Shown piece after piece: positions 3,906 to 36,494 of a DNA stretch of 41,164 nucleotides. Location of the stretch: positions 64,001 through 105,164 of IMG/VR virus record IMGVR_UViG_3300030339_000011; one strand, written 5' to 3'. The notes beneath the pieces were generated by a model. The model was not told where the DNA came from. It did not search any database and was given only the letters and a program-made list of their open reading frames with translations. The translations under genes and the position numbers were made by a program. Source of the stretch: a virus. Every line of letters starts with the position of its first letter. The first letter of the stretch is position 1.

Positions 3906-3940
3906 TAAAAAAACTCAGTTAATTTAACTGAGTTTTTTAT
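3906..3940 (+). terminator. Intrinsic-terminator-like hairpin (AAAAAACTCAGTTAATTTAACTGAGTTTTTT)
   Basis: Perfect palindrome plus T-run. Same stem as at 1455, 5724 and 16052. Confidence 0.7.
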
Positions 3941-3946
3941 TTATTG

Positions 3947-3976
3947 TTTTTTAATATATACAAATAAAAAAAATTA
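3947..3976 (+). promoter_or_regulatory. Promoter-like motif TTTTTTAATATATACAAATAAAAAAAATTA abutting the ATG
   Basis: Same motif as at 1514, 13344 and 30745. No Shine-Dalgarno sequence. Confidence 0.35.
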
Positions 3977-5722
3977 ATGGTAAATATACAGTTAGCGAGT
4001 GAAGAATGGGTTGAAGGAAGATTATCTGGAACAACAGGTGGATCAACAGGCACCTCTGGTACATCAGGTCAAAATGGGACTAGTGGAACAGCAGGTAAAT
4101 CTGGAACATCTGGACAGAATGGATCAACTGGAAACACAGGAAGTTCCGGTAATTCAGGAACGTCAGGAACTTCAGGACAGAATGGTTCAGTTGGATATGG
4201 AAGTTCTGGACAAAATGGTACATCAGGAACATCAGGTATTAGTATAAGTTCTAGTGGAGGTACAAATTCAGTTACAAATGTCACATATAGTGGATTAGTA
4301 ACATTAATTAATAATAGTGGATTAACTACTAATCAAGCATATTTAATTACTGATTATCAAACTATACATAGAATACCTGAAACAACTATTATAAATTCAG
4401 GAACAACAGAACCTTTATTAGTAACTGCAAGTAGTGTTAATACATTAAAGCCTGAGACGTATTCAAGATTATATCCGAATGATATAATATATTATGATTT
4501 CAATAATAATCAAAGTATGATGCCTGGATGTGCAAAAGGATATATTTATAGAAGAGTTGATACATTAAAAAATAATGATATTCCATTTGACTTCAGACAA
4601 GTAAAATTTAGAAGATGGCAATTGAATGTTACAAACATTTGGAATTCAGGATCAACATATATGAGAAGTGATGTTGTTTTAATCAGTGGGACAACACAAA
4701 TTTATATATGTTTAATTGATAATGTAATTGGTGTGAATCCATCAACACAAACAAATCAAATTATTTGGAAACGTTTTGAATGGGCTAATTTAAGTTATTC
4801 TAGTCCAAATATAACAAATTGGTATCTTTATTTTAGTATTCCAACATCCACTTTATATACTGATTATCTGATGTTTAATACATATGATAGTACAATTTAT
4901 TCTAATAGAATAAAACAAGATTACATTGGAGATGGAGATATACTTAATTGTAATAATACTGTATTTTTTGGAAATAATATTAACTGCAATACAATTGAAT
5001 CATATTTTAGTTATAATAGTATTGGAGCTAGTTTTTTTAATAATACAATAGGAGGAAATTTTGAACACAATAGTATCGGAGTTAATTTTACATTTAATAC
5101 AATTGAAAGTAATATTATGAATAATAGTATTGGAGCTAGTTTTTATAATAATACAATAAGAAGCATGTTTCAATATAATACTATTTCAGATGTGTTTTTT
5201 TATAATAGTATTGGAGAATATTTTATTCATAATTATATTGGTGAAGCGTTTTCTCGTAATACTATTGAATCATATTTTAGTTATAATAGTATTGGATATG
5301 CTGCTCTATGTAATACTATTGGAAATGGCTCGCAAAATAATAGGATTGGTTCTAATTTTCAAAATAATAATACAGGAAATTCTTTTGGTGGATATTTTAA
5401 TGGTAATATTATTGGGAATTATTTTCAATTTAATACTATTGGAAATGGATTTGACATCAATAACATTGGAAATGTTTTTAGCTATAATACTATTGGTAAC
5501 GCGTTTAATCGTAATGTAATTGGTAGCAATTTTAAGATGAATAATGTTTGTGATAATTTCAATATTGGTAATTATGATGTTGGTATTAACAATTATCATT
5601 TATCAGATTTTACAGCATCTACATATATTTATAATAGTTACACAAAAGATTTATATGTTGATTCATCTGTGATTCAAAAGTTAGCATACGATAGAAATAC
5701 TATTGTTAATGCAAATGCATAA
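3977..5722 (+). CDS. Tail-fibre-like protein: shared N-terminal adaptor, Gly-X-Y collagen-like linker, conserved core, 9-aa repeat solenoid, conserved C-terminal tail
   Basis: N-terminus MVNIQLASEEWV. About 20 G-X-Y triplets (GTSGTSGQNG..). Core YLITDYQTIH..EPLLVTAS..LYPNDIIYYDF..PGCAKGYIYRRVDT..DIPFDFRQVKFRRWQ. About 22 nonapeptide repeats. C-terminus STYIYNSYTKDL..KLAYDRNTIVNANA. Confidence 0.85.
   Translation: MVNIQLASEEWVEGRLSGTTGGSTGTSGTSGQNGTSGTAGKSGTSGQNGSTGNTGSSGNSGTSGTSGQNGSVGYGSSGQNGTSGTSGISISSSGGTNSVTNVTYSGLVTLINNSGLTTNQAYLITDYQTIHRIPETTIINSGTTEPLLVTASSVNTLKPETYSRLYPNDIIYYDFNNNQSMMPGCAKGYIYRRVDTLKNNDIPFDFRQVKFRRWQLNVTNIWNSGSTYMRSDVVLISGTTQIYICLIDNVIGVNPSTQTNQIIWKRFEWANLSYSSPNITNWYLYFSIPTSTLYTDYLMFNTYDSTIYSNRIKQDYIGDGDILNCNNTVFFGNNINCNTIESYFSYNSIGASFFNNTIGGNFEHNSIGVNFTFNTIESNIMNNSIGASFYNNTIRSMFQYNTISDVFFYNSIGEYFIHNYIGEAFSRNTIESYFSYNSIGYAALCNTIGNGSQNNRIGSNFQNNNTGNSFGGYFNGNIIGNYFQFNTIGNGFDINNIGNVFSYNTIGNAFNRNVIGSNFKMNNVCDNFNIGNYDVGINNYHLSDFTASTYIYNSYTKDLYVDSSVIQKLAYDRNTIVNANA
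4025..4240 (+). repeat. Gly-X-Y (collagen-like, proline-free) triplet-repeat coding segment
   Basis: Translation is [50 protein letters not shown].. Its reverse strand yields a spurious P-rich ORF (4069..4284). Confidence 0.75.
4920..5540 (+). repeat. 27-nt degenerate tandem repeat (~22 nonapeptide units)
   Basis: Period-9 IG..F..N pattern in the translation. Confidence 0.7.
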
Positions 5723-5723
5723 A

Positions 5724-5759
5724 ATAAAAAACTCAGTTAATTTAACTGAGTTTTTTTAT
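5724..5759. terminator. Bidirectional hairpin terminator between convergent genes
   Basis: AAAAAACTCAGTTAATTTAACTGAGTTTTTTT. A-run and T-run flank the stem, so it reads as a terminator on both strands. It sits between the + gene ending at 5722 and the - array ending at 5756. Confidence 0.7.
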
Positions 5760-6212
5760 TTCAATACTATTAATTTTTTATATGAACTTGGAAGTAGAGA
5801 TGACCAATCAGCTTCTCTAATTTCTAAATTTTTCTTACTTCTTATTAGTTCAGGATATCTAAATCCTTGTGAATTTTTTTTTGGTGAATACTTATTTAGT
5901 TGTTTATAATCATTTATAATTTCAGTTATAAATTTTTCAATTTGTATATAATTATTTATATAATTATTTTCAAAGAATTTCCAAACATATTCATAATGAA
6001 AGTAAATAATTTTATATTTAATATTTAAACTAAATAAGCATATTCCATTAACTTGATTTGGCGATGTTATTTTTATATTATATAACTTAAACAATTTAAG
6101 TTTTCTAATATATTGTTCGTCATAGAAATAAAAAACGTAATCATTCCATTCTTTATCTACTACTGGATAGCAATATAAAATTTTGCTAATCAACCAATTT
6201 GATAATTCTTCT

Positions 6213-6220
<8 letters not shown>
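5756..6220 (-). CDS. Member of the 13-gene tandem paralogue array (MSKEELSxW..CYP..FYDE..IRKLKL.K..N..G.CLF family), last in the operon
   Basis: 154 aa. N-terminus MSKEELSNWLISKILYCYPVV..FYFYDEQYIRKLKLFKL..GICLF. Its start overlaps the upstream neighbour by 8 nt. Confidence 0.75.
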
Positions 6221-8857
<2,637 letters not shown>

Positions 8858-8861
8858 ATTA

Positions 8862-9781
<920 letters not shown>

Positions 9782-10180
9782 TTATAATCTTGATTTTATA
9801 ATACTATTTTCATATATATTTTTAATCATACCAGGTAAAGGATTATAATCGAATAAAATTGGATGATCTTTTAGTAGTTTTTTTATTAGTTTTTGAATAT
9901 CATAGTAGTCATATGAATAGTTTTTTTCAAAGAACTTCCACAATTCTTCACTCAGCCATAAAATTCTAAATTTATTATCCTGATTAAATAAAAATGTTCC
10001 TTCAACATTATTAATTGAAATTAACTCTTCTGTATTATTTAATTTAAACAATTTAAGTTTTCTTATATATTTTTCGTCATAAACTAAGAATACACTATCT
10101 GGATATAATTCTACTTTAACTTGATAGCAGGAATTATATTTATTCCAGAACCAATCATATAAATCTTTTTTATACATCAT
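9782..10180 (-). CDS. Array paralogue (MMYKKDLYDWFWNKYNSCYQVK..LVYDEKYIRKLKLFKLNN)
   Basis: 132 aa. Confidence 0.7.
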   Translation of the reverse strand: MMYKKDLYDWFWNKYNSCYQVKVELYPDSVFLVYDEKYIRKLKLFKLNNTEELISINNVEGTFLFNQDNKFRILWLSEELWKFFEKNYSYDYYDIQKLIKKLLKDHPILFDYNPLPGMIKNIYENSIIKSRL

Positions 10181-10579
10181 TTAAATATAAACTTATTTTC
10201 TTGTAATTTTTCAATGATATATTAGCTGTTGATGAATTCATTGTTGGTAAATACATATTTAAATTAGTAATATTTTTTAGTATATCTTTCATGAATTTCT
10301 GATTATCATAGTAATCATCGGAATAGTATCTGAATAAAAAAGTCCAAATATCATCATTACAACGAAATTTTAATTTTTTAAAATCTTGTTGAAATATACA
10401 AGTTCCGTTAATTTCATTTGTAATTTTTATGTCTTGATTATTTATTTTGCCTAATTTAATTTTTCTAATGAATTGTTCATCATATATCCAAAAAATTATA
10501 CTTGGATAATCCTCATGTTTAACTTTATAGCATTTTTTTAATGTCTCCAATATAAAATCACTTAATTCTTCTTTTGTCA

Positions 10580-10580
<1 letters not shown>
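10170..10580 (-). CDS. Array paralogue ([57 protein letters not shown])
   Basis: 136 aa. Confidence 0.75.
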
Positions 10581-11354
<774 letters not shown>

Positions 11355-11487: not shown

Positions 11488-12008
<521 letters not shown>

Positions 12009-13377: not shown

Positions 13378-16035
13378 ATGATAAATATTCAATTAGCTAG
13401 TGAAGAGTGGGTTAATAGTCAATTGACTGGATCCACAGGTGGAGGTTCTGGCGGAACATCAGTTATAGATTTAACTTATAATGATTTACTAAATTTAATT
13501 AACTCGAATAGTTTAATTCCTAACCAAGCATATTTGATTACTGATTATCAAACAGTACATCAGATAACAAACACAAGTGATATTAATTACGGTATAAATG
13601 AACCGTTATTGGTAATATCAAGTAGTTTTAATACATTAAATGTTGAGGCTCATTCAAGTTTATATCCTCAGGATATAATATATTATAATTATAGAAATGA
13701 TTCTAATATGGTACCTGGCTGTCAATATGGATATATTTATAGAAGAATAGATACGATTCAAGATAATGATATATCATTTGATTTTAGACAAGTTAAATTT
13801 AGAAGATGGCAGATAATTGTAAATAATGTTTGGAATTCAGGAACAACATATCAAAAAAATGATGTTGTTTTATACAATGGATCAATTTATATTTGTTTAT
13901 ATAATAATACTATTGGAGATAATAATTTTTCATATAATTGGAATCAATTTAAATGGAATAACTTGTCTTATGTGAGTCCAACTGAAAATGTATGGAGCAT
14001 TGGGAATTCAAACATTTCATGTAGTACAGGTTACACTGACTATAATATGTGGTCTGATATTAATAATTATAATTATTCTCATTCTAATAAGATAGAACAA
14101 CATAATAGTAATACCAATAATGGTGATATTATAAGCAATAAAAATACTATAATTTTTGGAAGTTATTTTCAATATAATAAAATTATTGGAAATAATTTTA
14201 TTAATAATAGCATAGGTGGTTATTTTCAAAATAATATAATTGGAAATTATTTTAATAATAATAGTGTTGGTGATTTTTTTCAAAATAATAATATTGGTGA
14301 TTATATTTTTGATAATATTATTGGAAATAATTTTATTTTTAATAATATTATAAATCAATATTATAATAATAATATTGGTATGGATTTTCAAAATAATACA
14401 ATAGAAAATAGTTTCAATCAGAATAGTATTAGCTATAATTTTATTTTTAATAATATTGGAAAAAGTTTTCAAAATAATAGTATTGGATATTATTTTGTAT
14501 CAAATACAACTGGAAATTATTTTGGAGATAATAATATCAAAAGCTATTTTTCAGATAATATAATTGGAAATAATTTTGGTAGTAATAAAAACAGAGATTA
14601 TTTTCAATATAATAATATAAAAAATGAGTATCGTAATAATACCACAGATACTAATTTTAATAATAATACAATTGGAGATTCATTTTATAATAATACAATT
14701 GGAACTACTTTTTATCAAAATAATATTAATCACCAGTTTAGTTATAATATAATTGGTAATGATAGTAAAGATAATATTATTGATCATGATTGTCAATATA
14801 ATACAATAGGAAATAGTTTTCATGATAATATAATAGGCAACATGTGCAGTAATAATATATTTGGAAATGGTAATAATAGTAATATCATTAAAAACTCATG
14901 TTCTCGTAACACATTTGGTATTAATAATGTTAATAATACGATTGAAAGTTATAGTATGAATAATACATTTGATGGTAATTGTAGTAATAATGTTATTGAA
15001 TATCAATGTAGCTTTAATATATTTTCTGGTAGTTGCTTTAATAATTCAATTGGAAGCAACTCTTCAAATATTACTATATTAAATGGACAAGGTAATATAT
15101 TTGGTATTCAATGTAATACGATTAATATAGGCAATAATAGTAAATATAATACATTTAAAAATTATTGTCAATTTGATACAATTGGTACTGATTTTTGGAA
15201 TAATACAATTGAAAACAATTTTGTGCGTAACAAAATTGGAAATTATTGTCAGTATAATATATTTGGTGGAATTATTGTAGATAGTATTTTAGGTAATTAT
15301 TTTAGTTATAATACATTTGGTAGTCAGGCTAAATGTAATCTAGGTGATAATTATTCCAATAATATTTTTAATAGTTCATGTAATTTGTCATTAGGAGGAT
15401 CAGGATTTTCTAATAATATATTTGGTAGTCAATGTAATTTGTCAATTGGAGATAATTGTTATGATAATGTATTTGGAAATCAATGTAATTTGACAATAGG
15501 AAGTCAATTTTCAAATAATAATTTTGGTAGTCAGATTAACGGTTCTATTTCTGATAATTGTTATAATAATACATTTGTTGGACAATGCAATTTTACAATC
15601 GGTAGTAATTTTCAAAATAATACAATTGGAAGTCAATGTAATTTAACAACATTAGACAATTTTCAATATAATACATTCGGTAGTGGCTGTGAATTTACAG
15701 TAGGAAATAATTTTAAAAATAATACTATTAATAATTATTCTCAATCTAATACAGTTGGAGAAGATTTTAAGAATAATATTGTTGGTAGTAATTTTTCTGA
15801 GAATACTATTGGTGATAGTTTTAATAATAACACAATTGGTAGTAGTTTTCAAAATATTATAATTGGTAGTAATTTTAATATGAATACTGTATGTGACAAT
15901 TTTAATTATTTTAATTTAGATTTAACATCATCAACGTATATTTATAATACTTACACAAAAGAATTATTTGTTAATTCAAACGGAGAGCAAAAATTAATTT
16001 ATGATAAAATGGTTATTGTAGATGCAAATTTATAA
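13378..16035 (+). CDS. Large tail-fibre-like protein (885 aa): shared N-terminal adaptor, conserved core, ~65 nonapeptide repeats, conserved C-terminal tail
   Basis: MINIQLASEEWV N-terminus and short GGGSGG linker. Core [56 protein letters not shown]. Very long xIGxxFxxN / NC..G repeat region. C-terminus STYIYNTYTKELFV..KLIYDKMVIVDANL. Confidence 0.85.
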   Translation: MINIQLASEEWVNSQLTGSTGGGSGGTSVIDLTYNDLLNLINSNSLIPNQAYLITDYQTVHQITNTSDINYGINEPLLVISSSFNTLNVEAHSSLYPQDIIYYNYRNDSNMVPGCQYGYIYRRIDTIQDNDISFDFRQVKFRRWQIIVNNVWNSGTTYQKNDVVLYNGSIYICLYNNTIGDNNFSYNWNQFKWNNLSYVSPTENVWSIGNSNISCSTGYTDYNMWSDINNYNYSHSNKIEQHNSNTNNGDIISNKNTIIFGSYFQYNKIIGNNFINNSIGGYFQNNIIGNYFNNNSVGDFFQNNNIGDYIFDNIIGNNFIFNNIINQYYNNNIGMDFQNNTIENSFNQNSISYNFIFNNIGKSFQNNSIGYYFVSNTTGNYFGDNNIKSYFSDNIIGNNFGSNKNRDYFQYNNIKNEYRNNTTDTNFNNNTIGDSFYNNTIGTTFYQNNINHQFSYNIIGNDSKDNIIDHDCQYNTIGNSFHDNIIGNMCSNNIFGNGNNSNIIKNSCSRNTFGINNVNNTIESYSMNNTFDGNCSNNVIEYQCSFNIFSGSCFNNSIGSNSSNITILNGQGNIFGIQCNTINIGNNSKYNTFKNYCQFDTIGTDFWNNTIENNFVRNKIGNYCQYNIFGGIIVDSILGNYFSYNTFGSQAKCNLGDNYSNNIFNSSCNLSLGGSGFSNNIFGSQCNLSIGDNCYDNVFGNQCNLTIGSQFSNNNFGSQINGSISDNCYNNTFVGQCNFTIGSNFQNNTIGSQCNLTTLDNFQYNTFGSGCEFTVGNNFKNNTINNYSQSNTVGEDFKNNIVGSNFSENTIGDSFNNNTIGSSFQNIIIGSNFNMNTVCDNFNYFNLDLTSSTYIYNTYTKELFVNSNGEQKLIYDKMVIVDANL
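14130..15910 (+). repeat. About 1.8 kb of degenerate 27-nt tandem repeats (~65 nonapeptide units)
   Basis: Period-9 pattern in the translation. In the second half the repeat changes flavour (..NCxxxxFG.QCN.. units). Confidence 0.7.
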
Positions 16036-16492: not shown

Positions 16493-16909
16493 ATGGCTTC
16501 AGATATAATACATTTAGCAAGTGAAGAATGGGTTAGTGATATTTTCAGTGGATTAACTGTTGCAATTGGTAGTGGAGTCACAATCAATACTGTATATAAA
16601 TATAAAAAAATAAATTCTCCTACTGGAAATTTAAATTTAGATAATTGGACTGAAACATATATTGGAACAATATCGAGTGGAAACACAATAACTGTTATTC
16701 TTCCTACTCCAGCAAATGGGTTAGTTAATGAATCAATTTTAATATTCAAAACAGGAAGCTCAGTACCTACAATTTATCAACCGACTGGAGTTGTTTGGCG
16801 TGGAAATATTCCTATTTTAGGAATCAATTCTACTTGGACAATTGTTTATGAACAGGTATTTACAGAAACTGCTTTTGAAATTTATGCAGTAGCAATTAAA
16901 AACATTTAA
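16493..16909 (+). CDS. Short protein carrying the shared fibre N-terminal adaptor peptide (candidate anchor/adaptor subunit of a split receptor-binding protein)
   Basis: MASDIIHLASEEWVSDIFSGLT matches the N-termini of ORFs 1542, 3977, 13378 and 18077. Only 138 aa, directly followed by the LamG lectin gene. Confidence 0.65.
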   Translation: MASDIIHLASEEWVSDIFSGLTVAIGSGVTINTVYKYKKINSPTGNLNLDNWTETYIGTISSGNTITVILPTPANGLVNESILIFKTGSSVPTIYQPTGVVWRGNIPILGINSTWTIVYEQVFTETAFEIYAVAIKNI

Positions 16910-16910
16910 T

Positions 16911-17654
16911 ATGAAATATTATAGCGGAGAATTATTTAACCCAGAAGAAATTATACCATTTAAAGGTGTAGATAATTTATGGGCATCAGCAGATATTATA
17001 ACTGGTATCACTACAACTGGAATAACAGTTTTAGATTTGGATGCAGGAAATCTAGCATCTTATCCTAAATCTGGAAATATTTGGTATGATTTAACAGGAA
17101 GAGAAAATAATGCGTATCTAAATACTGGAAATGAATTTCAAACAATAGGAGGAGGTAGCATGAGGTTTGACGGAACACAAGGAATGGGTGTTGGTGTCTC
17201 ACCAGATTTTAGTTCATTAAATACCAACATAACATTAGATTCTGTTATTTATTGTGATAATTTAAATGATAATAGACAAATATGTTCAAAAGGGTTTGGA
17301 TATCAATATAGATTCAGAGTACAGAATAATGGAAGTTTATGGATTTATTGTACAAATAATGGAGAGATGTCTGGTGGTCATATATATTTAAATACCTGGA
17401 CATATGTAGCAGCAGTATTAAGTGATACTGGATTCAGAATTTATATAAATGGTGAATTAGTAAATTCAAATTCTGTTCCATATAATCCAGCAACACCATT
17501 TTCAGATACATCTGGACATTATGTTGGAGCATACAATTCAATGCAAGAGCATTTTTCTGGGTATATTGCAACTCAAAGAAGATATAATAGAGCATTAAAT
17601 GATAGTGAAATTATGAATAATTTTACTGCTATAAGATCCAGATTTGGAATATAA
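16911..17654 (+). CDS. Concanavalin-A-like lectin / laminin-G (LamG_3-type) domain protein
   Basis: SGNIWYDLTGRENNAYLNTG..MRFDG.. then TWTYVAAVLSDTGFRIYINGELV.. then FSGYIATQRRYNRALNDSEIMNNF. This is the canonical LamG signature (WxhVA.., LY.NG.., F.G.I..V.IYNRALS..EI). Confidence 0.75.
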   Translation: MKYYSGELFNPEEIIPFKGVDNLWASADIITGITTTGITVLDLDAGNLASYPKSGNIWYDLTGRENNAYLNTGNEFQTIGGGSMRFDGTQGMGVGVSPDFSSLNTNITLDSVIYCDNLNDNRQICSKGFGYQYRFRVQNNGSLWIYCTNNGEMSGGHIYLNTWTYVAAVLSDTGFRIYINGELVNSNSVPYNPATPFSDTSGHYVGAYNSMQEHFSGYIATQRRYNRALNDSEIMNNFTAIRSRFGI

Positions 17655-17674
17655 TATAAAAATTAATTGATAAT

Positions 17675-18034
17675 ATGAAAGCAAAATTAATAGAAGGAAA
17701 AATAGAATTTTTTACACAACCAAATTGGCTGTTAGGAGATTCAACAACATATTCAATTGAAAACGGATATAAAGAAGTTATATATGTAACAGGAACAACA
17801 ACTGTTTATGAAGATGATTTAAATGTTTTTGTTGGAATGCCAACTCACATTGATAATAATGATGAGATAAAATTTAAAAGAAGTATGGCGTATAAAGATA
17901 GAAGTGATTCATATTATATGGCATATCAAAAATATCTGGCTCTTAATAATATAGATAAAGCTAATCAATCAAAAGATTTATGGCTTTCTGAAATAAATAA
18001 AATAGATCTTGAATTTCCTTATGTTACTGAATAA
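17675..18034 (+). CDS. Hypothetical protein, paralogue of ORF 3513 (IENGYKE motif)
   Basis: TYSIENGYKEVIYV matches SDLCIENGYKELRF of 3513. Both lie downstream of fibre-module genes. Confidence 0.55.
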   Translation: MKAKLIEGKIEFFTQPNWLLGDSTTYSIENGYKEVIYVTGTTTVYEDDLNVFVGMPTHIDNNDEIKFKRSMAYKDRSDSYYMAYQKYLALNNIDKANQSKDLWLSEINKIDLEFPYVTE

Positions 18035-18070
18035 ATTTATATTCAAAAATAAAGAAAATAAAAAAAAATA
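18035..18070 (+). promoter_or_regulatory. AT-rich promoter-like motif (TTTATATTCAAAAATAAAGAAAATAAAAAAAATA)
   Basis: Related to the fibre-gene upstream motif. No Shine-Dalgarno sequence. Confidence 0.3.
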
Positions 18071-18076
18071 TTAATT

Positions 18077-21000
18077 ATGAGTGAAATAATATATTTAGCT
18101 AGTCAGGAATGGGTTAGAGGATTTGAAAGCGGATTAACTGGAAGTAGTTCTGCAAGTTATTGGGAAAAAGTACCACCAACTATTGGAACTACAACTGAAT
18201 TTCCTCTTTGGTGGTATAGTGGGGATTATAATATATATGGAAAAGATTATTATAATTTTGACGCTGTAACAGCAGGTATTAGAGGAAACCAAGGAGTTTA
18301 TTTTAATAACGGATTTTCAACTTATTTTGGAACTTCAACACCAGGTAGTACATCTACTAAATTTTATGCTGCACTTTTAGATAATCAATTATCTACTATT
18401 TCATATAATGAATGGTCTGGATATAATGGATTTTCAATAAGACTAACTCGTGAAGCGACTTCAGGTGAAACATTATTATCTGATGGAGAAATAATTTCAT
18501 CTGGATTCACAGATATAGACGGAAATGTATATAGTTGTGTTAAAATTGGTACTCAAATTTGGACTAGAGAAAATTTAAGAGTTATAAATGGATATGATTA
18601 TGCATCATCTGCAACAACTTCATTAGTAACTTTGGATGATCATGATTGGTGGTATAATACTAGTACTCAATATCCTGCTTATGCTGAATATCCAATTGAA
18701 AATATTATAGAAGATTATGCAATATTTAATTTACCTTTTACCATGCCTAGTGGATATACTCAAAATGATATAAATGTTATATACGGTAGAATATATTGCT
18801 TATTTGCAGCTAACACATTAATACAAAATAATCCAGATGGTTGGAGAGTACCTTTAAATTCTGATTTTGAAACAATGACGTCTTATATGATAAGTGTCAA
18901 TCCAAATATAACAATAGATAATGTTGGCGATGCATTAAAGTCAATAAGACATGCAGATTATGAAGCAATAAAACCTATTAATAGTACTGGATATGTAATA
19001 GTAGATTGTAATTTAGTTGTAAGTGGTGGTACAATGAGTGGAGATGGATCAAAAATAACAAATATATCAGCAACTAATGTAGTTGGAATTCCAACTAATT
19101 ATGCTCCATCTGATGGTGCTCAATATTTAACTGTTGAAGGAAAAAATGTTGATTCTGGAATAAATGGAGAGGAATTACAAACTGTATATGATTTAGCAAA
19201 ATCTATAAATCCGAGTTCAAATAATCCTATAAACATAATTATATATCCTGGATATTACGGAATGCCTAATGGACTTAGTTTAGATACTCCTTATATAAAT
19301 TTAATATCAGCAACAGGAGAATTAGATGTTAAAATTGAATTTGCTGGCGCTATTGTTATTTCAGATAATATTAAATTGACAGGTATATTTTTTGGAGGTA
19401 GTGGATTAAAACTCACTGGAAATTTTCCAGGGTTATGGATTGAAAATTGTTCAGGAATGATAGATGGGGGTAATATTTTAACGTATCCAGATACTAATTT
19501 ATCTGGAACTTTTAAAGATATAAATTTAGTTAATGGTAATGGATTTGGTTATATACAAGAAGCATCTGGATATTTTGAAAATATATATCATAAAGGTGGA
19601 AATTTATTTTATGATACTAAAATTATATCTGGTATATTCAAAAATTGTAATGCTGCAAACGGATTTGGTGTAGGAGGAGCTGTCATATCATCTGGTGCGA
19701 CATTTGAAAATTGTACATGTGATGATGCTGGATTTGGAGGAGGAGGAGGTTGTATTATATCATCTGGAACTACTTTTATTAATTGCAATTCTGGTGATAA
19801 TTCATTTGGTAATAGTGGAATAGAAGTGTCTGGTACATTTATTAATTGTAATGCTGGAAATTCTTCATTTGGTGCTCATTGTATGACATCTGGAACATTT
19901 GTGAATTGTACAGCAAAAGGTAATACTGGATCTTTTGGTGATTCTAAACAAGGTGGAACATTAACAGGTAGTTTATATAATTGTAGATTGACTACGCCAG
20001 GTACATTTGGACTTCCTTCAAGTGGAGGTACTATTCTGTTATGTATTGACGGTTATGGAGCAGTAATAGGAGCAGGAGATTTTGCTCCATCAGATGGAAA
20101 TCAATATTTAACAGTTAAAGGAATCAGTAGTGATCCTGGAACAAATGGAGCTGAGTTACAGAATGTTTATAATATAGCTAAGGCTTTAAATCCAACAATA
20201 ATTAGTCCAATTAATATAATTATTTATCCTGGTTATTATGGAATGACATCATTAATTAGTTTAGATACTCCTTATATAAATTTAATTTCTTCAACAGGGG
20301 AATTAGATATTGAAATTGGTTATAGTGGTATATTAATTATCACAGATAATATTAAATTAATTGGTATAAATTTTACAGGTATGGGATTAGAAATAAGAGG
20401 AAATTTTCCTGGATTAAGGATTGAAAATTGTTCAGGACAAATTAAAGGTAGCACAATTGATAATAGTACTATTTTATCTGGAACATTTAAAAATTTAAAA
20501 TTAACAAATAACACATTTGGATCAGGTGTTTCTGACTTTCCTGGTCATTTTGAAAATATAACATCAGACGGTGCGTTGTTTAATGGAGAGAATGGAGATT
20601 TATCTGGAAGATTTATAAATTGTACTGCTGAAACTGGATTTTCTTCAACATCTTTATCTGGTACATTTATTAATTGTAATTCTGGAGATTTCTCATTTGG
20701 AACAAATGAAGTTGGAGCAAATGTATCTGGAACATTTATAAATTGTACTGCTGGAAATACTTCATTTGGAATTGATGGTATTGCATCTGGAACATTTATA
20801 AATTGTACAGCAAAAAGTAAATCTTTTGGTGACTCTACACGAGGTGGAGCATTAACAGGAAGTTTATATAATTGTAGATTGACTACTCCAGGTACATTTG
20901 AAATACCTTCAAGTGGAGGTACAATTATATTATGTATTGACGGTTATGGAAAAATAATTGGGGGAGGTGATTTTGCTCCAACAATAGGAACTCAATTTTT

Positions 21001-22084
21001 AACAGTAAAAGGTGGAAATAGTAATCCTGGAATAAATGGAAATGAATTGCAAAATGTGTATAATATAGCGAAAGCTATAGTACCAGCACCAGATAGTCCA
21101 GTTAATATTATTATATATCCTGGATATTATAGTTTTCTAACTGATAGTCTTAATTTAGATACTCAAAATATAAATTTAGTTTCATCTACTGGAAATATCG
21201 ATGTAAATATTGGTGGTTCTGGTGTTATAATTACTAATAATAAAATAAAAATAAATGGTATTAACTTTATTGACGGTGGCTTAAAACTAACAGGAAATTT
21301 TCCAGAATTATATATTGAAAATTGCTCTGGACAAATTCAAGCTGATACTACTAATGGTGATGTTACTGCATCTGGAACATTTAAGAATATAAATATTACA
21401 ATGGGATCTGGGTTTTCAGGTATTTTTAATTGCTCAGGTATTTTCAAAAACATATTCAGTTCTAATAATTTGCCATTATTTTCAAGTTCAATTGATACAT
21501 TATCTGGAACATTTACAGATGTAAATTCTGTATTAATTTTTCAAGTAAATAATTTAACTGGTACATTTTTAAATTGTAAAGGGAATAACGGTAGTTTTAA
21601 TGGAATTTGCTCTGGTACTTTTACTAATTGTGAAGGATTATCTTCTTCATTTACTACGATAAATGGAGGTACTTATAATAATTGTGTAGGACAGTTTGTT
21701 GAAATATCAGGAGGAAAATTATATTATTGTAAGAAAAATGATGGTTCTTACCCTACTCCTATTAATGGTGGTGAAATTCATCTTTGTATTGACGGAAATG
21801 GAATTACTGTTGATTCATCAATTATACCTCAAAGTTTATCTTTAAGTAAAATTGGAGCAAATAGCACACCAAGTCCTCAAAGATTTCAATGGATAACAGA
21901 TAAAACAATATCAAGAGTATTATTAACAACTAACTGTTCAGGAGTAACTGTTTCAATTAGTGATATTACTTACGATGAAATAACATTAGTTGGAGTAACT
22001 TTACCTGCTTTAACTGACTTAGTTATTTTAGATATTGCAATACAAACTGGATATGACAATGCTAATGCGATTATAATTTTCTAA
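18077..22084 (+). CDS. Giant 1335-aa fibre/adhesin-like protein: shared N-terminal adaptor, FISUMP-like domain, three ~300-aa internal repeats rich in beta-helix NC..G..SFG units
   Basis: MSEIIYLASQEWV N-terminus. DGNVYSCVKIGTQIWTRENL followed about 100 aa later by PDGWRVPLNSDFETM matches the two signature blocks of the Fibrobacter succinogenes major paralogous (FISUMP) domain as I recall them. Three repeats each begin (D)FAPSDG.QYLTV.G...PG.NG.ELQ.VY..AK...P....PINIIIYPGYYG..LDTPYINLIS.TGELD. Many SGTFINC.AGN.SFG units. Confidence 0.8.
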   Translation: MSEIIYLASQEWVRGFESGLTGSSSASYWEKVPPTIGTTTEFPLWWYSGDYNIYGKDYYNFDAVTAGIRGNQGVYFNNGFSTYFGTSTPGSTSTKFYAALLDNQLSTISYNEWSGYNGFSIRLTREATSGETLLSDGEIISSGFTDIDGNVYSCVKIGTQIWTRENLRVINGYDYASSATTSLVTLDDHDWWYNTSTQYPAYAEYPIENIIEDYAIFNLPFTMPSGYTQNDINVIYGRIYCLFAANTLIQNNPDGWRVPLNSDFETMTSYMISVNPNITIDNVGDALKSIRHADYEAIKPINSTGYVIVDCNLVVSGGTMSGDGSKITNISATNVVGIPTNYAPSDGAQYLTVEGKNVDSGINGEELQTVYDLAKSINPSSNNPINIIIYPGYYGMPNGLSLDTPYINLISATGELDVKIEFAGAIVISDNIKLTGIFFGGSGLKLTGNFPGLWIENCSGMIDGGNILTYPDTNLSGTFKDINLVNGNGFGYIQEASGYFENIYHKGGNLFYDTKIISGIFKNCNAANGFGVGGAVISSGATFENCTCDDAGFGGGGGCIISSGTTFINCNSGDNSFGNSGIEVSGTFINCNAGNSSFGAHCMTSGTFVNCTAKGNTGSFGDSKQGGTLTGSLYNCRLTTPGTFGLPSSGGTILLCIDGYGAVIGAGDFAPSDGNQYLTVKGISSDPGTNGAELQNVYNIAKALNPTIISPINIIIYPGYYGMTSLISLDTPYINLISSTGELDIEIGYSGILIITDNIKLIGINFTGMGLEIRGNFPGLRIENCSGQIKGSTIDNSTILSGTFKNLKLTNNTFGSGVSDFPGHFENITSDGALFNGENGDLSGRFINCTAETGFSSTSLSGTFINCNSGDFSFGTNEVGANVSGTFINCTAGNTSFGIDGIASGTFINCTAKSKSFGDSTRGGALTGSLYNCRLTTPGTFEIPSSGGTIILCIDGYGKIIGGGDFAPTIGTQFLTVKGGNSNPGINGNELQNVYNIAKAIVPAPDSPVNIIIYPGYYSFLTDSLNLDTQNINLVSSTGNIDVNIGGSGVIITNNKIKINGINFIDGGLKLTGNFPELYIENCSGQIQADTTNGDVTASGTFKNINITMGSGFSGIFNCSGIFKNIFSSNNLPLFSSSIDTLSGTFTDVNSVLIFQVNNLTGTFLNCKGNNGSFNGICSGTFTNCEGLSSSFTTINGGTYNNCVGQFVEISGGKLYYCKKNDGSYPTPINGGEIHLCIDGNGITVDSSIIPQSLSLSKIGANSTPSPQRFQWITDKTISRVLLTTNCSGVTVSISDITYDEITLVGVTLPALTDLVILDIAIQTGYDNANAIIIF
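19080..21800 (+). repeat. Three tandem ~0.9 kb intragenic repeats (units starting near 19100, 20081, 20971)
   Basis: Protein-level repeat with clear nucleotide similarity (e.g. ..tttgctccatcagatgg.. / ..tttgctccaacaatagg.. ; ..atatatcctggatattat..). Confidence 0.7.
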
Positions 22085-22098
22085 AAAACAAATAAAAT

Positions 22099-22365
22099 AT
22101 GATACAAATAACAGACACAATAGAGTTTGATGAATCTAAAGATTTAGAATTTCAATCATCTGGATTTACGATATGGTTTCAAACTGAATGCTTAAGTAAA
22201 ATAAATTTTAAGAATGATGAATCAAAAACTTGTTCAACATTTGATAAATTTGGAAGACCATCGACTTGGATATTTGGTAATATAACAGTAGAGGCTGAAT
22301 ATTATCCAATTGTTGGAAATCAAGATTTTAATTTTAAAAAATATCTAGTTTATGGGAATATTTAA
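22099..22365 (+). CDS. Small MIQIT-protein, cassette component (paralogue of 25875)
   Basis: MIQITDTIEFDESKDLEFQSS aligns with MIQITGTTEFDETKLLSMQSS. The first ~35 nt of the two genes are nearly identical. It overlaps the downstream tailspike-like gene by 14 nt. Confidence 0.65.
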   Translation: MIQITDTIEFDESKDLEFQSSGFTIWFQTECLSKINFKNDESKTCSTFDKFGRPSTWIFGNITVEAEYYPIVGNQDFNFKKYLVYGNI

Positions 22366-23929
22366 AAGATACTATAATCCAGTTACAAATACTGTTCTCA
22401 CTGATGCAAACACCACATTTGTATGTTCAATAACTGGCAACAACAATAATCCAGGAACAAGAGAATTTCCAATTGCGACATTGACAAAATTTACATCATT
22501 ATATGATGATAATGCTCGTAATATATTATATAGAGGAGAAACTATTGAAAATCCAGCATCATTTTTTCATGGATATTTAATAGGAGATGGAGAAGATGCA
22601 TATTTAAATGGTAGTTGGACATGTAATTATTATGGATCAAGCATTTTTTATGGTATAAAAATATTACAATTCACTGGACTTGGAGGTATAATAAATTCAA
22701 GTATAAACACAATGTTAATGAGTTCATCAATAGTTGAGAGTAACTTTATTAACAATTACAATAGCTTAGTAGAAGGAGGTTCAAATAATGGAATAAGTAA
22801 TGGATTGAATATTAAAAATAATACAGTATTAAATTTTAAAAATTATTGTAAAATATCAGGTGTCAATTTATTAAATTTCATATTTGTTATTGAAGTAGAT
22901 TTATATAATTATACATCAGTATCAAATATATCAAATTTTCAAATTTTCAAATATTGTTTATTTAGAAAAACAATAATTTGGAAATGGAAAGGTATTATAG
23001 TTCCTATTAACTATGGTACTTATGGTAATATATTGAATGATTATATGACAGATGTAATTTCAGCATGGTATATTTTTTCTAATACCATTGTAGATGCAAC
23101 GGAAAAAGCATACTGTCAGACTATGTTTCCAAATGAAATTACGTCTCCTTTATTTTACATAGATATTAATGGACAAACATGTAAGGTAGTTGAGGATAGA
23201 CCATCTATTGAAGGAAGCAAAAAAATATTTAATAGATACACAAATGACAATCCTATTGATTATTCTTTGTTTTTGAATTCTGAAAACATTGCTTTAACTA
23301 TGAGCGATCAAAAAAACTATGTTGGATGTTACAAAGCAAATGCTGATGTGATAACATTTAACAATGTATTAAATGTGAATTCTGATGGTTCTGACGACTT
23401 AGTTACAATTCCTGATATGCTAGTTTTTAATGGCAATAGTAATTTTACTGTTAGTTCCGCTGATTCAGTTCAGATAAGAAATAGAATTCGTTCTAATGTA
23501 TTTACTTTTAAACGTGGTTTTTCTTTAGCTGGAATGCAAGGACAAGTTAAATCTGGATTAGAAAGTAGATTCTCTTTTGGTAAATTTCAAGCATATAATG
23601 TGACAGATTCTCCATCTTTACCTCAAGAATCATTAGAGATTATTCCATATGACAGTATGACAGAACCTTCATCATTTCCGAGATTTTCAGTTATGTTTAA
23701 TGGTGTGTGTCAAATGTGGTATAACTCAACAACAAATTTACCTATTTTATTTAATGATCTTTTATCATTTGGAATAGTGACTGATAAAAATTTAACTGAG
23801 TACGGAAATTGGGCTGTTACAAATGCTGATTATGAAAGTTTTTTATTAAGCTCATTACCTGGTATAAAACTAAATAACATAAAAATCTATTATGCTAAAG
23901 TAGAAATAAATCTTAATTATTATTTATAA
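22352..23929 (+). CDS. Tailspike-like protein, cassette copy 1 (paralogue of 24135 and 26144)
   Basis: MGIFKRYYNPVTNTVLTDANTTFVC..NPGTREFPIATLTKF (beta-helix cap-like G.T..P..T..KA). Conserved FKYCLFRKT..WKW, NVNSDGSDDLVT..RNR.RSNV, and EIIPYDS..YGNWAVTNAD.ESF blocks shared with 24135 and 26144. Confidence 0.8.
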   Translation: MGIFKRYYNPVTNTVLTDANTTFVCSITGNNNNPGTREFPIATLTKFTSLYDDNARNILYRGETIENPASFFHGYLIGDGEDAYLNGSWTCNYYGSSIFYGIKILQFTGLGGIINSSINTMLMSSSIVESNFINNYNSLVEGGSNNGISNGLNIKNNTVLNFKNYCKISGVNLLNFIFVIEVDLYNYTSVSNISNFQIFKYCLFRKTIIWKWKGIIVPINYGTYGNILNDYMTDVISAWYIFSNTIVDATEKAYCQTMFPNEITSPLFYIDINGQTCKVVEDRPSIEGSKKIFNRYTNDNPIDYSLFLNSENIALTMSDQKNYVGCYKANADVITFNNVLNVNSDGSDDLVTIPDMLVFNGNSNFTVSSADSVQIRNRIRSNVFTFKRGFSLAGMQGQVKSGLESRFSFGKFQAYNVTDSPSLPQESLEIIPYDSMTEPSSFPRFSVMFNGVCQMWYNSTTNLPILFNDLLSFGIVTDKNLTEYGNWAVTNADYESFLLSSLPGIKLNNIKIYYAKVEINLNYYL

Positions 23930-24134: not shown

Positions 24135-25646
24135 ATGGGAATATTTAGAATATACTATCATCCAAAAAGTAACATTGTACTAACAAATACAAACACTAAA
24201 TTTGTTAGTACAATAGTTGGATTAAACACTAATCCAGGAACAAGAGAGTTGCCATATGCCACTTTAACCAAGGCTATATCCGCTATGGGTACAGCATCAT
24301 CAATTGTTTTAAGCGGTCCTACAATAGAAAATATATCATCATATGTTGATATAATAGGTGATAATGTATCTGCTGATATTAATGGAATATGTAATGGAAG
24401 TTATACCGCAAATTTATATAATCTTAGAGTATTAGAAGTTACAGGCAATTATGGAGAAGTAAAAAATTGTTTCGTTACTAGAAAAGGATTAGGTTCATAT
24501 GGACAAAATAGTTTTAATTTTGTAGAATCATCATCACGAGCTGCATCTTATTCTAATGGTGATTCTAATACAACATTTTTAAATTTTGATAATTGGACAG
24601 ATTCAACTGGTATGATACAGGATTCTAATATATATGTATCAATGATTGATTTATTTCCAAGAGTAGCATTAAGTTGTTATCCAATATTCAAATATTGTTT
24701 ATTTAGAAAAACAACTGTTTGGAAATGGAATGGAGAAATAATTCCAGATACTGATAATATAAATTCAATACCTGAGTTGTTATCATCATTAACTAATTAT
24801 GCTACTAATACATTATCTGGCACATCTCAAACTTATATGAGGTTATTAATAGACACATCATTTTATTCAGATATATCTATAGGACAAACTAATAAGATTG
24901 TAGATGATTCTATATATCCAATATTTAATAGGTATAATGTTGATGGATCTATATCTGATTATACTCTTAATGTTAATGGAAATAATATTGCTCTTTATAT
25001 GGCTAATCCTACATTACTTGATCATCAGTATGTTGGTTGTTACAAACCTAATATATCTGGTGAGTTTAGTAGTAATCCATTAGTGTTTGGTGATATAAAC
25101 AATGTTAATTCAGATGGTAGTGACGATTTAGTAACAACACCAGATTTATTGATTAGCAACGGAAAAGTTGGATTCTACGCTTCACAAGATTCTATTCAAA
25201 CTAGAAATAGAACAAGAAGTAACGTATTATCATATGCAAGAGGTATGAAACCTGGAGGTGGTCAAGCTCAACTAAAAAGTGGGTTAATAGATAGATTTTA
25301 TTTTGGAAAGAATAGAACATTTACAACATCATCAGTTCCTTGTGAAAGTGTTGAAATTATACCTTATGATTCTTTAACACAAATTAGTTCTTATCCAAGA
25401 TATTCAACACCATTTAATGATATCTGTCAAATTTGGTATCACATAGATGCGAATGTTCCTGTTCTATTTAATGAATTGTCTGAATTAGGTGTAATTTCAG
25501 ATATAAATTTAACTGAATATGGAAATTGGGCAGTAACAAATGCTGATAATGAATCATTTGATTTAAATTTTATAACAGGAGTTACATTAAGACCCCAAGT
25601 TATAGTTTATATTAAAATAGAATTAAATTTAAATTATGCGGAATAA
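24135..25646 (+). CDS. Tailspike-like protein, cassette copy 2
   Basis: MGIFRIYYHPKSNIVLTNTNTKFVSTIVGLNTNPGTRELPYATLTKA. Same conserved blocks as 22352. The first 30 nt are almost identical to 22352. Confidence 0.8.
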   Translation: MGIFRIYYHPKSNIVLTNTNTKFVSTIVGLNTNPGTRELPYATLTKAISAMGTASSIVLSGPTIENISSYVDIIGDNVSADINGICNGSYTANLYNLRVLEVTGNYGEVKNCFVTRKGLGSYGQNSFNFVESSSRAASYSNGDSNTTFLNFDNWTDSTGMIQDSNIYVSMIDLFPRVALSCYPIFKYCLFRKTTVWKWNGEIIPDTDNINSIPELLSSLTNYATNTLSGTSQTYMRLLIDTSFYSDISIGQTNKIVDDSIYPIFNRYNVDGSISDYTLNVNGNNIALYMANPTLLDHQYVGCYKPNISGEFSSNPLVFGDINNVNSDGSDDLVTTPDLLISNGKVGFYASQDSIQTRNRTRSNVLSYARGMKPGGGQAQLKSGLIDRFYFGKNRTFTTSSVPCESVEIIPYDSLTQISSYPRYSTPFNDICQIWYHIDANVPVLFNELSELGVISDINLTEYGNWAVTNADNESFDLNFITGVTLRPQVIVYIKIELNLNYAE

Positions 25647-26143: not shown

Positions 26144-27856
26144 ATGACAAATTTATTTAAAACACGTTTCGTTCCAAATGATGATGGTACAGATTCAGTC
26201 ACACAAATAACTAATATAAATACTGTATTTGTACATACTTATATTGGAGATGATTTTTCAGGAGATGGTACTCGTGAATATCCATATAAATCTATATTTA
26301 AGGCTAATCAAAAAATTGGAGTAACATATATAATTTTTAGAGGTGTAATAAATGAATATTTTCAATTAAATAATAAAAATTTAATTGGAGATGATATTAA
26401 TCAACAATTATTATTCTTAAATTATAATCCAGTTATATATGAAGGACCATTTTGCAATAATATGACAGTAGATTCCGTGAGTGGATCAGTTAATAGTAGA
26501 GCTTGGTCTCATTCAATAATAAAATCATATAATGTTTCATCATTAAATAATTTTAGTTATTTATTAGTTGAGAATATCGCTCGTGGTTCTTCTAATGATG
26601 GTAGAAGAGACAGGAATATATTACAATCTACTTTTTTAGGAAACGAAATAGGTAGTTGTACAATAAAAAATTGTATTCAAGTATCTGAATATAATTGGAT
26701 TAATACAAGTAATGGAACAAATAAATATGTTGTATTCCCATCAACTTGTATATTTAAATATAATAATATTCCATTAATACAGCCTGAATGGACTAATGAT
26801 TCAAAAACAAATATACAGATAATTAGAAATCTATATTTAGAATCTGGAATGAGCCAGCAAAACTTAGATTCTCTTTTTATGATAGATTCTTTTGGAAATG
26901 AAACTTGTAGAATTATAAAAGAATCAAGAAATGGCGGAACATCAGGCAACATTTTCAATATGTATAATACTGATGGTAGTATATTAGATTATTCTTTAAA
27001 TCCGCAGTCGAATAATGAAGCGTTATATGCATCTGACTTAGGTGGATATGTAGGATGTTTTGGTCCTGCTAATCCTATATTACCTACAGATTTAGATGTT
27101 CAAATTAATGTTAATTCTGATGGTTCTGATGATGTAGTTAATGCAGCTACTTTACTCAGAGGTAATGTTGATAATACTTTTGATTTTAATACAGCATCTG
27201 ATCAAATATGGAATAGAATGAGAAGTCATACCACAATATCTATACCTAACGGTGTTAAATTTAAAGGTAGTCAATCAATGGAAGATGATGGTAGTGCATT
27301 TGGTTATTACTTCGGTAAAAAACAAAATCTATTGGATATTACTATATTAACAACTGGAAGTACTTTAGAAGCCGATACATTATACAAAGTGTGTAATACA
27401 ATTAAGGACGTATTTTCAGCAGTATTATATAATGGTACTCAATATTTACCAGATTATTTTTTCAAAACAGGAACTGATGTTCTAAACTATTCATTGTTAA
27501 ATGAAGGATCTGGTACAATAGTACGTAAAGTGTTGAGCATTCCATTTGAATCAGAAGAAATTATACCTTATGACGACATTAATACTCCTTCTGTTAGCTT
27601 TCCTAAATTTAGCTGTCCTTTTTTCGGAATTGTGTTAATGTTATTTCATAAAATAGGAGATAGAATAGATTTACCTGTGTTATTTAGTGAAATAACAAGT
27701 GATAAAATATCGTATTATAGTGATTATGCAATTACAACTGCAGACAATGAATTTGTTATTTTATCTGCTGATTCTGTTAATTATTATTATAAAATTCCAG
27801 CTATTAAATTTTTTAGAATTGAACTAAATGCTCATTTTGATGAAGATTACGCTTAA
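26144..27856 (+). CDS. Tailspike-like protein, cassette copy 3 (most divergent)
   Basis: ..DGTREYPYKSIFKA.., VNSDGSDDVVNAATLL.., EEIIPYDDINTPSVSFPKFS..DYAITTADNEF share the family blocks. Confidence 0.75.
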   Translation: MTNLFKTRFVPNDDGTDSVTQITNINTVFVHTYIGDDFSGDGTREYPYKSIFKANQKIGVTYIIFRGVINEYFQLNNKNLIGDDINQQLLFLNYNPVIYEGPFCNNMTVDSVSGSVNSRAWSHSIIKSYNVSSLNNFSYLLVENIARGSSNDGRRDRNILQSTFLGNEIGSCTIKNCIQVSEYNWINTSNGTNKYVVFPSTCIFKYNNIPLIQPEWTNDSKTNIQIIRNLYLESGMSQQNLDSLFMIDSFGNETCRIIKESRNGGTSGNIFNMYNTDGSILDYSLNPQSNNEALYASDLGGYVGCFGPANPILPTDLDVQINVNSDGSDDVVNAATLLRGNVDNTFDFNTASDQIWNRMRSHTTISIPNGVKFKGSQSMEDDGSAFGYYFGKKQNLLDITILTTGSTLEADTLYKVCNTIKDVFSAVLYNGTQYLPDYFFKTGTDVLNYSLLNEGSGTIVRKVLSIPFESEEIIPYDDINTPSVSFPKFSCPFFGIVLMLFHKIGDRIDLPVLFSEITSDKISYYSDYAITTADNEFVILSADSVNYYYKIPAIKFFRIELNAHFDEDYA

Positions 27857-30262: not shown

Positions 30263-30694
30263 ATGTCAACAGATGATTTAAGAAATTGGTTATTAGACAA
30301 ATTGTTGTCATGTTATCCAGTGGTTAGTGAAAATTTATATCATCAAATTTATTGGTATTATGATGAATCTTATATAAGGAAAAATAAATTATTAAAATTG
30401 AATAATATTTCTAATGATGATTTATTAAATCATAAAATAAATGGAGAATGTTTATTCATTCAAGATACAGACAATAAATTCATTTGGTGTGATCATAAAT
30501 ATATTTGGAATTTTTTAGAATCGAATTATAATGAAAATGAGTATAAGATAAATATATTAATTGAGAAAATATTAATCAATAAGAAGGAATTTAATGATTA
30601 TAATTATTTTGGTTATTATGATCATGAGATGAATAAAATTCTATTATTAAAATCATTCAAAGAATTAAAAATAATTGATTATTCAATTAGATAA
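30263..30694 (+). CDS. Second dispersed member of the MSKEELS array family
   Basis: MSTDDLRNWLLDKLLSCYPVV..IYWYYDESYIRKNKLLKLNN..GECLFIQDTDNKFIWCDHKYIWNFLESNY matches the family core, about 19 kb away from the array. Confidence 0.7.
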   Translation: MSTDDLRNWLLDKLLSCYPVVSENLYHQIYWYYDESYIRKNKLLKLNNISNDDLLNHKINGECLFIQDTDNKFIWCDHKYIWNFLESNYNENEYKINILIEKILINKKEFNDYNYFGYYDHEMNKILLLKSFKELKIIDYSIR

Positions 30695-30744: not shown

Positions 30745-32673
<1,929 letters not shown>

Positions 32674-36256: not shown

Positions 36257-36494
36257 ATTCTTTAAGTTTATCTATTTTTTGTTTTCTTTCAGTTTTAATA
36301 TCTAATTTGAATCGTTTAATTTTATATCTCAAATCGGAATTTCCTACTAATGATAAGTAATATTTATTAAATTTTACACTGAAATGAATTTGTTTAATTT
36401 TATATTTTTTACCAAATTCTAATATTGTATTGTTATTATTAATTACAACTACATCATCACCAATTTTCAAATATTCAATTTTTATTTTTGACAT
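36243..36494 (-). CDS. SH3/KOW-like mini-protein, member of the 8-gene tandem array (KIGD.VV.....L.L.KKY.I.... DLK..R..K(L/I)..L C-terminus)
   Basis: MSKIKIEYLKIGDDVVVINNNNTILEFGKKYKIKQIHF..FKLDIKTERKQKIDKLKEYESI. Confidence 0.7.
   Translation of the reverse strand: MSKIKIEYLKIGDDVVVINNNNTILEFGKKYKIKQIHFSVKFNKYYLSLVGNSDLRYKIKRFKLDIKTERKQKIDKLKEYESI

Follow-up and report, generated by a model that had tools for sequence, protein, structure and literature searches.

A putative modular tail-fibre protein with a permuted FISUMP-type module and three tandem beta-helix repeats from an uncultured AT-rich phage

Gene and protein

The stretch of viral DNA analysed here (the window) comprises 41,164 nucleotides (nt), positions 64,001 to 105,164 of the IMG/VR record IMGVR_UViG_3300030339_000011. 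Its GC content is 24.7% and almost none of its open reading frames (ORFs) has a Pfam or PHROG match. ORF 18077-22084 on the plus strand, which is complete and intact and starts with ATG, encodes a protein of 1335 amino acids (aa), a putative modular tail fibre or receptor-binding protein. In this protein, a short N-terminal motif is followed by a FISUMP-type module in permuted order, a linker, three tandem beta-helix modules and a C-terminal extension. The parts of the gene, all on the plus strand, are described below in window coordinates. An identical protein is encoded by an independent JGI metagenome contig (P0001), and a 228-aa fragment that is 99% identical and carries no annotation (P0009) was found in an ENA assembly. 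An artefact of assembly is thereby ruled out.

FISUMP-type module

The original prediction proposed a FISUMP-like domain (Fibrobacter succinogenes major paralogous domain) in the N-terminal part of the protein. Profile comparison confirmed a genuine module of this family, since both curated cut-offs were exceeded. The whole protein scored 43.2 bits against PF09603 (E 6.6e-11; gathering score 33.9 bits) and 54.6 bits against TIGR02145 (E 2.2e-14; cut-off 41.65 bits), and aa 130-341 alone reached 47.1 bits with PF09603. The PF09603 domain was also present in all 103 more distant members of the 104 database homologues of aa 1-341, the exception being the fragment P0009. These scores and the homologues show that the similarity reaches beyond the two short motifs noticed at first.

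The two motifs themselves are well placed. The hairpin block DGNVYSCVKIGTQIWTRENL (aa 148-167, nt 18518-18577) and the second block PDGWRVPLNSDFETM (aa 253-267, nt 18833-18877), which lies 105 aa after it, coincide with invariant or near-invariant columns in an alignment with 77 FISUMP proteins. D146, G149, N150, Y152, I157, G158, W162 and L167 are invariant across the 79 aligned sequences, and G237, Y240, P253, G255, W256 and P259 are nearly so. The family blocks DGNxYxxVKIGxQxW..NL and YGxxY...PxGWxVP..x(F/W)..(M/L) are thus both kept.

The family membership stood, whereas the notion of a single canonical domain did not. FISUMP proteins carry one colinear domain of 176-187 residues, but the window protein has its parts in the order C-terminal third, hairpin, middle, and an end-to-end colinear cover of the FISUMP model (about 175-190 residues) was not found. 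Piece 1 (aa 46-128, nt 18212-18460) is the C-terminal third and corresponds to TIGR02145 positions 100-173 of 176; scanned alone, it gave 23.8 bits. Piece 2 (aa 141-205, nt 18497-18691) consists of the N-terminal beta-hairpin block DGNVYSCVKIGTQIWTRENL and the segment that follows it. Piece 3 (aa 230-325, nt 18764-19051), which reads YGRIY...NPDGWRVPLNSDFETM...NSTGY, is the middle of the domain (TIGR02145 positions 44-116) and has Asn where the family has Cys before P-x-G-W. The best single stretch is aa 155-290, spanned by PF09603 positions 1-110 of 187. A hidden Markov model (HMM) of our own, built from 77 bacterial-type homologues, mapped aa 52-128 to model positions 160-235, piece 2 to 35-93 and piece 3 to 97-188. 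The pieces hence make up one turn of a circularly permuted domain and amount to about 1.2 domain equivalents; model positions 160-188 are covered twice. Two further features set the protein apart. FISUMP proteins, known from Fibrobacter, Bacteroidota and other bacteria, are secreted proteins of 220-260 aa with a lipoprotein or signal sequence, whereas the window protein is a phage-fibre fusion with no such signal, and the family's cysteine pair, CPxGW ... SVRC, is replaced by NPDGW ... IRL.

The same order, C-terminal part before hairpin, occurs in the closest homologues P0002 and P0003, in P0174, in the 209-aa protein RPMD05_88 of Rhodobacteraceae phage LS06-2018-MD05, whose gene adjoins virion structural genes, and in proteins of about 500 aa on 13 IMG/VR loci (L009-L019, L021 and L023). 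The IMG/VR proteins are 38% identical to aa 20-168, including the linker REAT(A/S)GE(L/T)LL, which the window protein shares together with the order and the cysteine loss. The SVRC cysteine is kept in 62 of 64 motifs of bacterial homologues and the CPxGW cysteine in 42 of 70; permuted phage proteins have Leu, Tyr or Met in the former position and Ala, Pro or Asn in the latter. The loss of cysteines plausibly fits the folding of a virion protein in the reducing cytoplasm. The window protein differs from these phage proteins in that its first piece is truncated N-terminally, its domain is prolonged by a second middle segment after the hairpin, and it carries three beta-helix modules where they have at most one. 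In P0002 and P0003, this module is 50% identical to that of the window protein.

On some IMG/VR phage contigs, canonical and permuted FISUMP genes lie a few kb apart (L009, 7614-8414 and 9563-11140; L020, 4490-6589). The proteins with the canonical order are small there (266 aa), and three of them stand in tandem in L020. The permuted, fibre-like gene of about 500 codons on the IMG/VR contigs is flanked by a CHAP-domain gene and a DUF6734 gene.

The disturbed order could also mean that the FISUMP region is a degenerate relic of a recombined tandem array that has lost its lectin-like fold and, as a spacer or shaft, only keeps the beta-helices apart from the anchor. The low score of piece 1 alone, the overlap within 1.2 domain equivalents, the missing conserved cysteines and the lack of a model for aa 1-135 are in agreement with this explanation. 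However, the permuted order recurs in about 20 other phage proteins on different contigs, which likewise lack the cysteine pair and in which the C-terminal part scores 73-125 bits. Moreover, the invariant motif residues are kept in the window protein, and aa 139-300 were modelled by AlphaFold with a predicted local distance difference test score (pLDDT) of 70-89, with strands at 139-163 (pLDDT 84-89). We therefore consider the relic unlikely. A Foldseek search of PDB with this N-terminal model (aa 1-341) gave no match below E=1, and a sequence search of PDB with the same region returned nothing.

A FISUMP domain on a virus had been regarded as unusual. It is indeed rare in deposited phages: a search with a canonical multi-FISUMP query found it in just six of the 50,697 records, and the cases inspected are small genes that stand by themselves. 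It is not unprecedented, since FISUMP modules in canonical and permuted forms were found on at least 15 IMG/VR loci, and Fib_succ_major/DUF1566 domains are a published class of targets of diversity-generating retroelements (DGRs) (PMC5758913, PMC4159848, PMC11661182), including those of Bacteroides uniformis phages (PMC8143477). A literature search under the name FISUMP returned nothing. In the bacterial literature, the domain is described only as 'putatively' cellulose-binding or cohesin-like, with no known ligand (PMC4704652).

The published DGR targets raise the question of whether the module, predicted to be of the C-type-lectin (CLec) type, is a hypervariable target of mutagenic retrohoming, as in the Bacteroides 'Bacuni' phages or Legionella LdtA. 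DGR variable proteins with the C-type-lectin fold, such as TvpA (2y3c) and TaqVP (5vf4; target class 'd', Wu et al. 2018, PMC5758913), come with a reverse transcriptase and a template/variable repeat pair, whereas neither was found in the window. No adenine-biased mismatch pair occurred among 873 self-alignments of the window, and these revealed no second copy of the FISUMP-coding region (nt 18077-19100). Pfam scans, which covered the window ORFs of at least 100 aa outside the region 34.1-38.3 kb, detected no reverse transcriptase. The identical protein in a second sample also speaks against hypervariability. Within the available sequence, the status of a DGR target was thus rejected, and we regard it as extremely improbable.

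Beta-helix repeats

Three tandem repeats of about 300 aa had been predicted downstream, and they were seen in both DNA and protein: R1 (aa 341-667, 327 aa, nt 19097-20077), which has one extra rung, R2 (aa 668-964, 297 aa, nt 20078-20968), the unit used for modelling, and R3 (aa 965-1241, 277 aa, nt 20969-21799), the most diverged copy. The nucleotide repeat families begin at 19098, 20079 and about 20970, with spacings of 981 and about 891-894 nt. Pairwise identities among the three repeats are 62, 47 and 50% for protein and 74, 61 and 64% for DNA. Seventeen rung motifs of the SGTFxNC type are spaced 18-25 aa apart inside each repeat.

The predicted beta-helix character was borne out by modelling and not by Pfam. 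The model of aa 655-964, built with 61 family sequences, reached a pLDDT of 92.3 and a predicted template modelling score of 0.89, and shows an N-terminal helix followed by short strands. In this model, the repeat unit is a right-handed parallel beta-helix of the pectin-lyase-like fold superfamily, with three sides, about 10 rungs and a cap at the N-terminal end. The Pfam models Beta_helix, Pectate_lyase_3, NosD, DUF1565 and similar ones gave no match to the repeats even at E<=10, scans of the repeats against NCBIfam and PHROG gave none either, and a profile of the repeats matched no PDB sequence. Matches to LD_SV2, CMV_UL148C, pentapeptide and HalA models in scans of the repeats and the C-terminal 94 aa were dismissed as noise.

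The repeat unit nevertheless defines a large family. An exhaustive phmmer search collected 824 cluster representatives at E<=1e-3, of which 541 reached E<=1e-10; all are unnamed or 'hypothetical'. Family members combine the module with Mtd_N, phage fibre repeats (Phage_fiber_rpt), collagen or FISUMP, and in 97% of them the closing motif GGxIxLCIDG lies at most 15 aa from the C-terminus. One module per protein was found in 154 cases and two full modules in two (with two further weak cases); three occur only in the window protein. Further members are encoded on one crAss-like contig and on one other phage-like contig. A tblastn search with the family member P0115 against the 50,697 deposited phage genomes gave no match. 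The module is thus common in metagenomic phages yet absent from deposited ones at the sensitivity of tblastn. On a 140-kb crAss-like contig (L005, Crass_capsid at 3858-5435), two paralogues of the module family are located at 10001-11299 and 17672-18739.

Depolymerase tailspikes are known from P22, CBA120 and Klebsiella and Acinetobacter phages. By analogy, at least one of the beta-helix modules might be an active polysaccharide lyase, hydrolase or epimerase acting on capsule, extracellular polysaccharide or O-antigen. The positions conserved across the family are the Gly, Phe, Cys, Asn and Ser residues of the rungs, and no conserved acidic pair (Asp/Glu) was found inside the rungs. Because the conserved residues are structural and not acidic pairs, we favour, with low confidence, a binding or structural role as the one suggested by the sequences, and consider the depolymerase rather unlikely. 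The phage beta-helix domains of Det7 gp208 (6f7k), phi29 gp12 (3gq7), CBA120 TSP2 (5w6p), Acinetobacter gp49 (6c72) and cyanophage Pam1 (7eea) have no detectable sequence similarity to the window repeats. Unlike these spikes, the window protein lines up three complete domains in each chain, its SGTFxNCxxGxxSFG rungs are highly regular and form a Cys/Asn ladder, and it has no recognisable catalytic residues. The A-module of the mannuronan C5-epimerase AlgE4 (2pyg), a bacterial secreted enzyme, is 13% identical, and there is no sign that its catalytic residues are kept in the window repeats.

Other parts of the protein

The N-terminal motif MSEIIYLASQEWVRGFESGLTG (aa 1-24, nt 18077-18148) is common to four other fibre-like ORFs of the window, which start at 1542, 3977, 13378 and 16493 with near-identical copies of it. 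The motif, xxII(Y/Q/H)LA(S/N)xxWV...G.T, thus opens five plus-strand ORFs (1542-1610, 3977-4045, 13378-13446, 16493-16561 and 18077-18148) and is visible in the DNA as well (78-84% over 33-58 nt). This supports the ATG start of the gene. The motif probably serves a group of alternative fibres as a common docking or assembly element. The N-terminus, which has this fibre-type motif, shows neither a signal peptide nor a lipobox. The assignment of LASQEWV at this place to the FISUMP motif PS..EW..L was rejected, as LASQEWV-type motifs open four fibre genes of the window that have no FISUMP domain.

The linker GDGSKITNISATNVVG (aa 320-338, nt 19034-19090) faintly resembles the repeats of phage fibres and Chlorovirus glycoproteins; its score against Chlorovi_GP_rpt, 17.1 bits, is under the cut-off, and P0003 matches Phage_fiber_rpt with 24.2 bits at the equivalent position. 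The C-terminal extension of 94 aa (aa 1242-1335, nt 21800-22081), to which no fold is assigned, gave no match beyond noise to a Pfam, NCBIfam or PHROG family and none to PDB sequences. Such an extension is missing in 97% of the repeat-family members, in which no more than 15 aa follow the closing motif.

Homologues and genomic context

The closest homologue, P0003, is a 766-aa protein with a permuted FISUMP module, a fibre repeat and one beta-helix module. Its gene, on a 35-kb contig with 28% GC, directly precedes the tail sheath gene. The contig also carries genes for a T4-type portal, the large terminase, the gp19 tube and the baseplate, those for the tube and baseplate lying downstream. The terminase is closest to that of the Flavobacterium myophage vB_FspM_immuto (29.8% identity). 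Two genes upstream of P0003 (L001, 8015-9247), there is a 45-47% identical copy of a fibre gene of the window with 9-aa repeats. P0003 thus lies within a T4-like tail gene cluster, in agreement with the predicted virus-borne fibre, and the window gene sits among fibre-like genes. The phage of the window would accordingly be a relative of a T4-like myovirus from another metagenome, as judged from these similarities.

Around ORF 18077-22084, the window is rich in fibre-like genes. Two genes upstream, 16911-17654 encodes a 247-aa protein with a Laminin_G_3 (concanavalin-like lectin) domain that matches PHROG 8510, 'virion structural protein', and neighbouring ORFs match tail-fibre PHROGs. Directly downstream, 22352-23929, 24135-25646 and 26144-27856 encode three paralogues of 503-570 aa that share a C-terminal region and the N-terminus MGIF(K/R)xYY...NPGTRE(F/L)P(I/Y)ATL, a typical beta-helix start with a weak DUF1565 match; they are probably further tailspike-like proteins. 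Four fibre-like proteins (193-1440, 3977-5722, 13378-16035 and 30781-32673) consist of dozens of 27-nt (9-aa) NNxIGxxF repeats and have the C-terminal end ...IYDKxxIV(D/S/N)AN(A/L) in common. Two of them contain collagen-like G-x-S/T triplets and one a CBM5/12 module. The window looks like the fibre-gene-rich part of a larger, poorly sampled phage genome.

On the minus strand, 5756-11354 is a head-to-tail array of 13 small paralogous genes (115-168 aa, period about 400-500 nt), and two more copies stand on the plus strand at 11556-12008 and 30263-30694 (31-44% identity). No Pfam family matched these paralogues. The same GC-poor hairpin (AAAAAACTCAGTTAA..TTAACTGAGTTTTTT) was found past three fibre genes at 1454-1500, 3888-3951 and 5713-5776 and probably acts as a common intrinsic terminator. 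The stretch 34.1-38.3 kb, which is poor in long ORFs, contains a repeat of about 102 nt in five copies, about 230-470 nt apart, at 36387-37666. No tRNA genes were found in the window.

Two alternatives, a non-viral window and a protein that is no part of a virion (a cell-surface adhesin from an AT-rich bacterium, or a non-structural viral protein), have to be weighed against this context. None of the genes in the 41 kb was identified as coding for a capsid, portal, terminase, sheath or tube protein, the window's own contig is missing from the IMG/VR matches, and the rung motifs are found as well in contigs assigned to bacterial metagenome-assembled genomes (MAGs). Such bins, however, often hold phage contigs. 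The N-terminus has the fibre-type motif and no secretion signal, the closest homologues are encoded in a T4-like tail cluster in which neighbouring fibre genes are conserved too, further family members are found in crAss-like and phage-like contigs, and neighbouring ORFs match tail-fibre and virion structural PHROGs. All this speaks against these alternatives, which we hold to be very unlikely.

Weak hints point to a Bacteroidota or Fibrobacter host. The distribution of FISUMP is biased to the Fibrobacterota-Chlorobiota-Bacteroidota (FCB) group, the terminase on the P0003 contig resembles that of a Flavobacterium phage, and a relative is crAss-like. A scan with a degenerate rung motif matched MAG contigs of Flavobacterium, Lutibacter, Paludibacteraceae and Sphingobacteriia, and also MAGs of Ignavibacteriaceae, Sumerlaeota, Hydrogenedentota, Verrucomicrobiia and Syntrophales. 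These matches are too mixed for a host to be named from the rung motifs.

Discussion

We conclude, with a probability of about 0.7, that the product of ORF 18077-22084 is a long tail fibre of modular build, or a receptor-binding protein of the tailspike type, from an uncultured, very AT-rich phage. As such, it would be attached to the virion, presumably as an oligomer, and would bind a ligand without acting on it enzymatically. Through the N-terminal motif of about 24 aa, the fibres that share it probably all dock at one place on the virion, or else begin to oligomerise. The FISUMP-type module, which would belong to the fold family of C-type lectins and the formylglycine-generating enzyme, is probably an accessory module that binds a ligand or glycan. 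A short fibre-repeat-like linker would then join it to three complete right-handed parallel beta-helices. These may have arisen by tandem duplication of a module that is single, C-terminal and distal in relatives. The triplication would give either a spike three times as long or a fibre whose binding surfaces, up to three in number, have diverged, and the distinctive 94-aa domain would end the fibre.

Several points weigh against this interpretation. The lectin-like module lies near the N-terminus, usually the virion-proximal end, which is an odd site for a receptor-binding domain. AlphaFold left aa 1-135 unplaced (pLDDT <50), the input alignment having covered the second FISUMP segment only, and the folding of the permuted pieces into one domain is a prediction from sequence. 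Missing acidic conservation across a diverse family is compatible with enzymatic activity in single members. The window is devoid of recognised head, sheath and tube genes, so that the phage origin and the tail location are suggested by homologues and fibre-like neighbours. Finally, the whole protein had no tblastn match in the 50,697 deposited phage genomes and no PHROG family.

It is tempting to speculate, though we would put it forward only as a tentative idea, that the Cys-free permuted FISUMP modules form a phage-specific lineage of receptor-binding domains with the C-type-lectin fold. This lineage would derive from surface proteins of FCB-group hosts, be adapted to cytoplasmic folding and be independent of DGRs. 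Combined with a beta-helix head that was triplicated and diverged, it might provide several receptor specificities on one fibre. If this is true, the host range would be broadened by domain multiplication and not by multiple fibres or mutagenesis.

The gene represents an unusual architecture of a familiar kind of protein and not a new kind of system, and the current understanding of phage fibres stands, with none of it overturned. The novelty lies in the combination of a permuted, Cys-free FISUMP module on a tail fibre without a DGR and a fibre-tip domain repeated three times in tandem. The repeats define a large family of fibre-tip beta-helices (more than 800 cluster representatives at 50% identity) that is absent from Pfam, NCBIfam and PHROGs, which matters for the annotation of receptor-binding proteins in uncultured T4-like and crAss-like phages. 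FISUMP/CLec modules recur on phage fibres in permuted and Cys-free form, outside DGR systems. The fibre with three modules is a natural case of the multiplication of a receptor-binding domain and may be used in studies of host range or in engineering.

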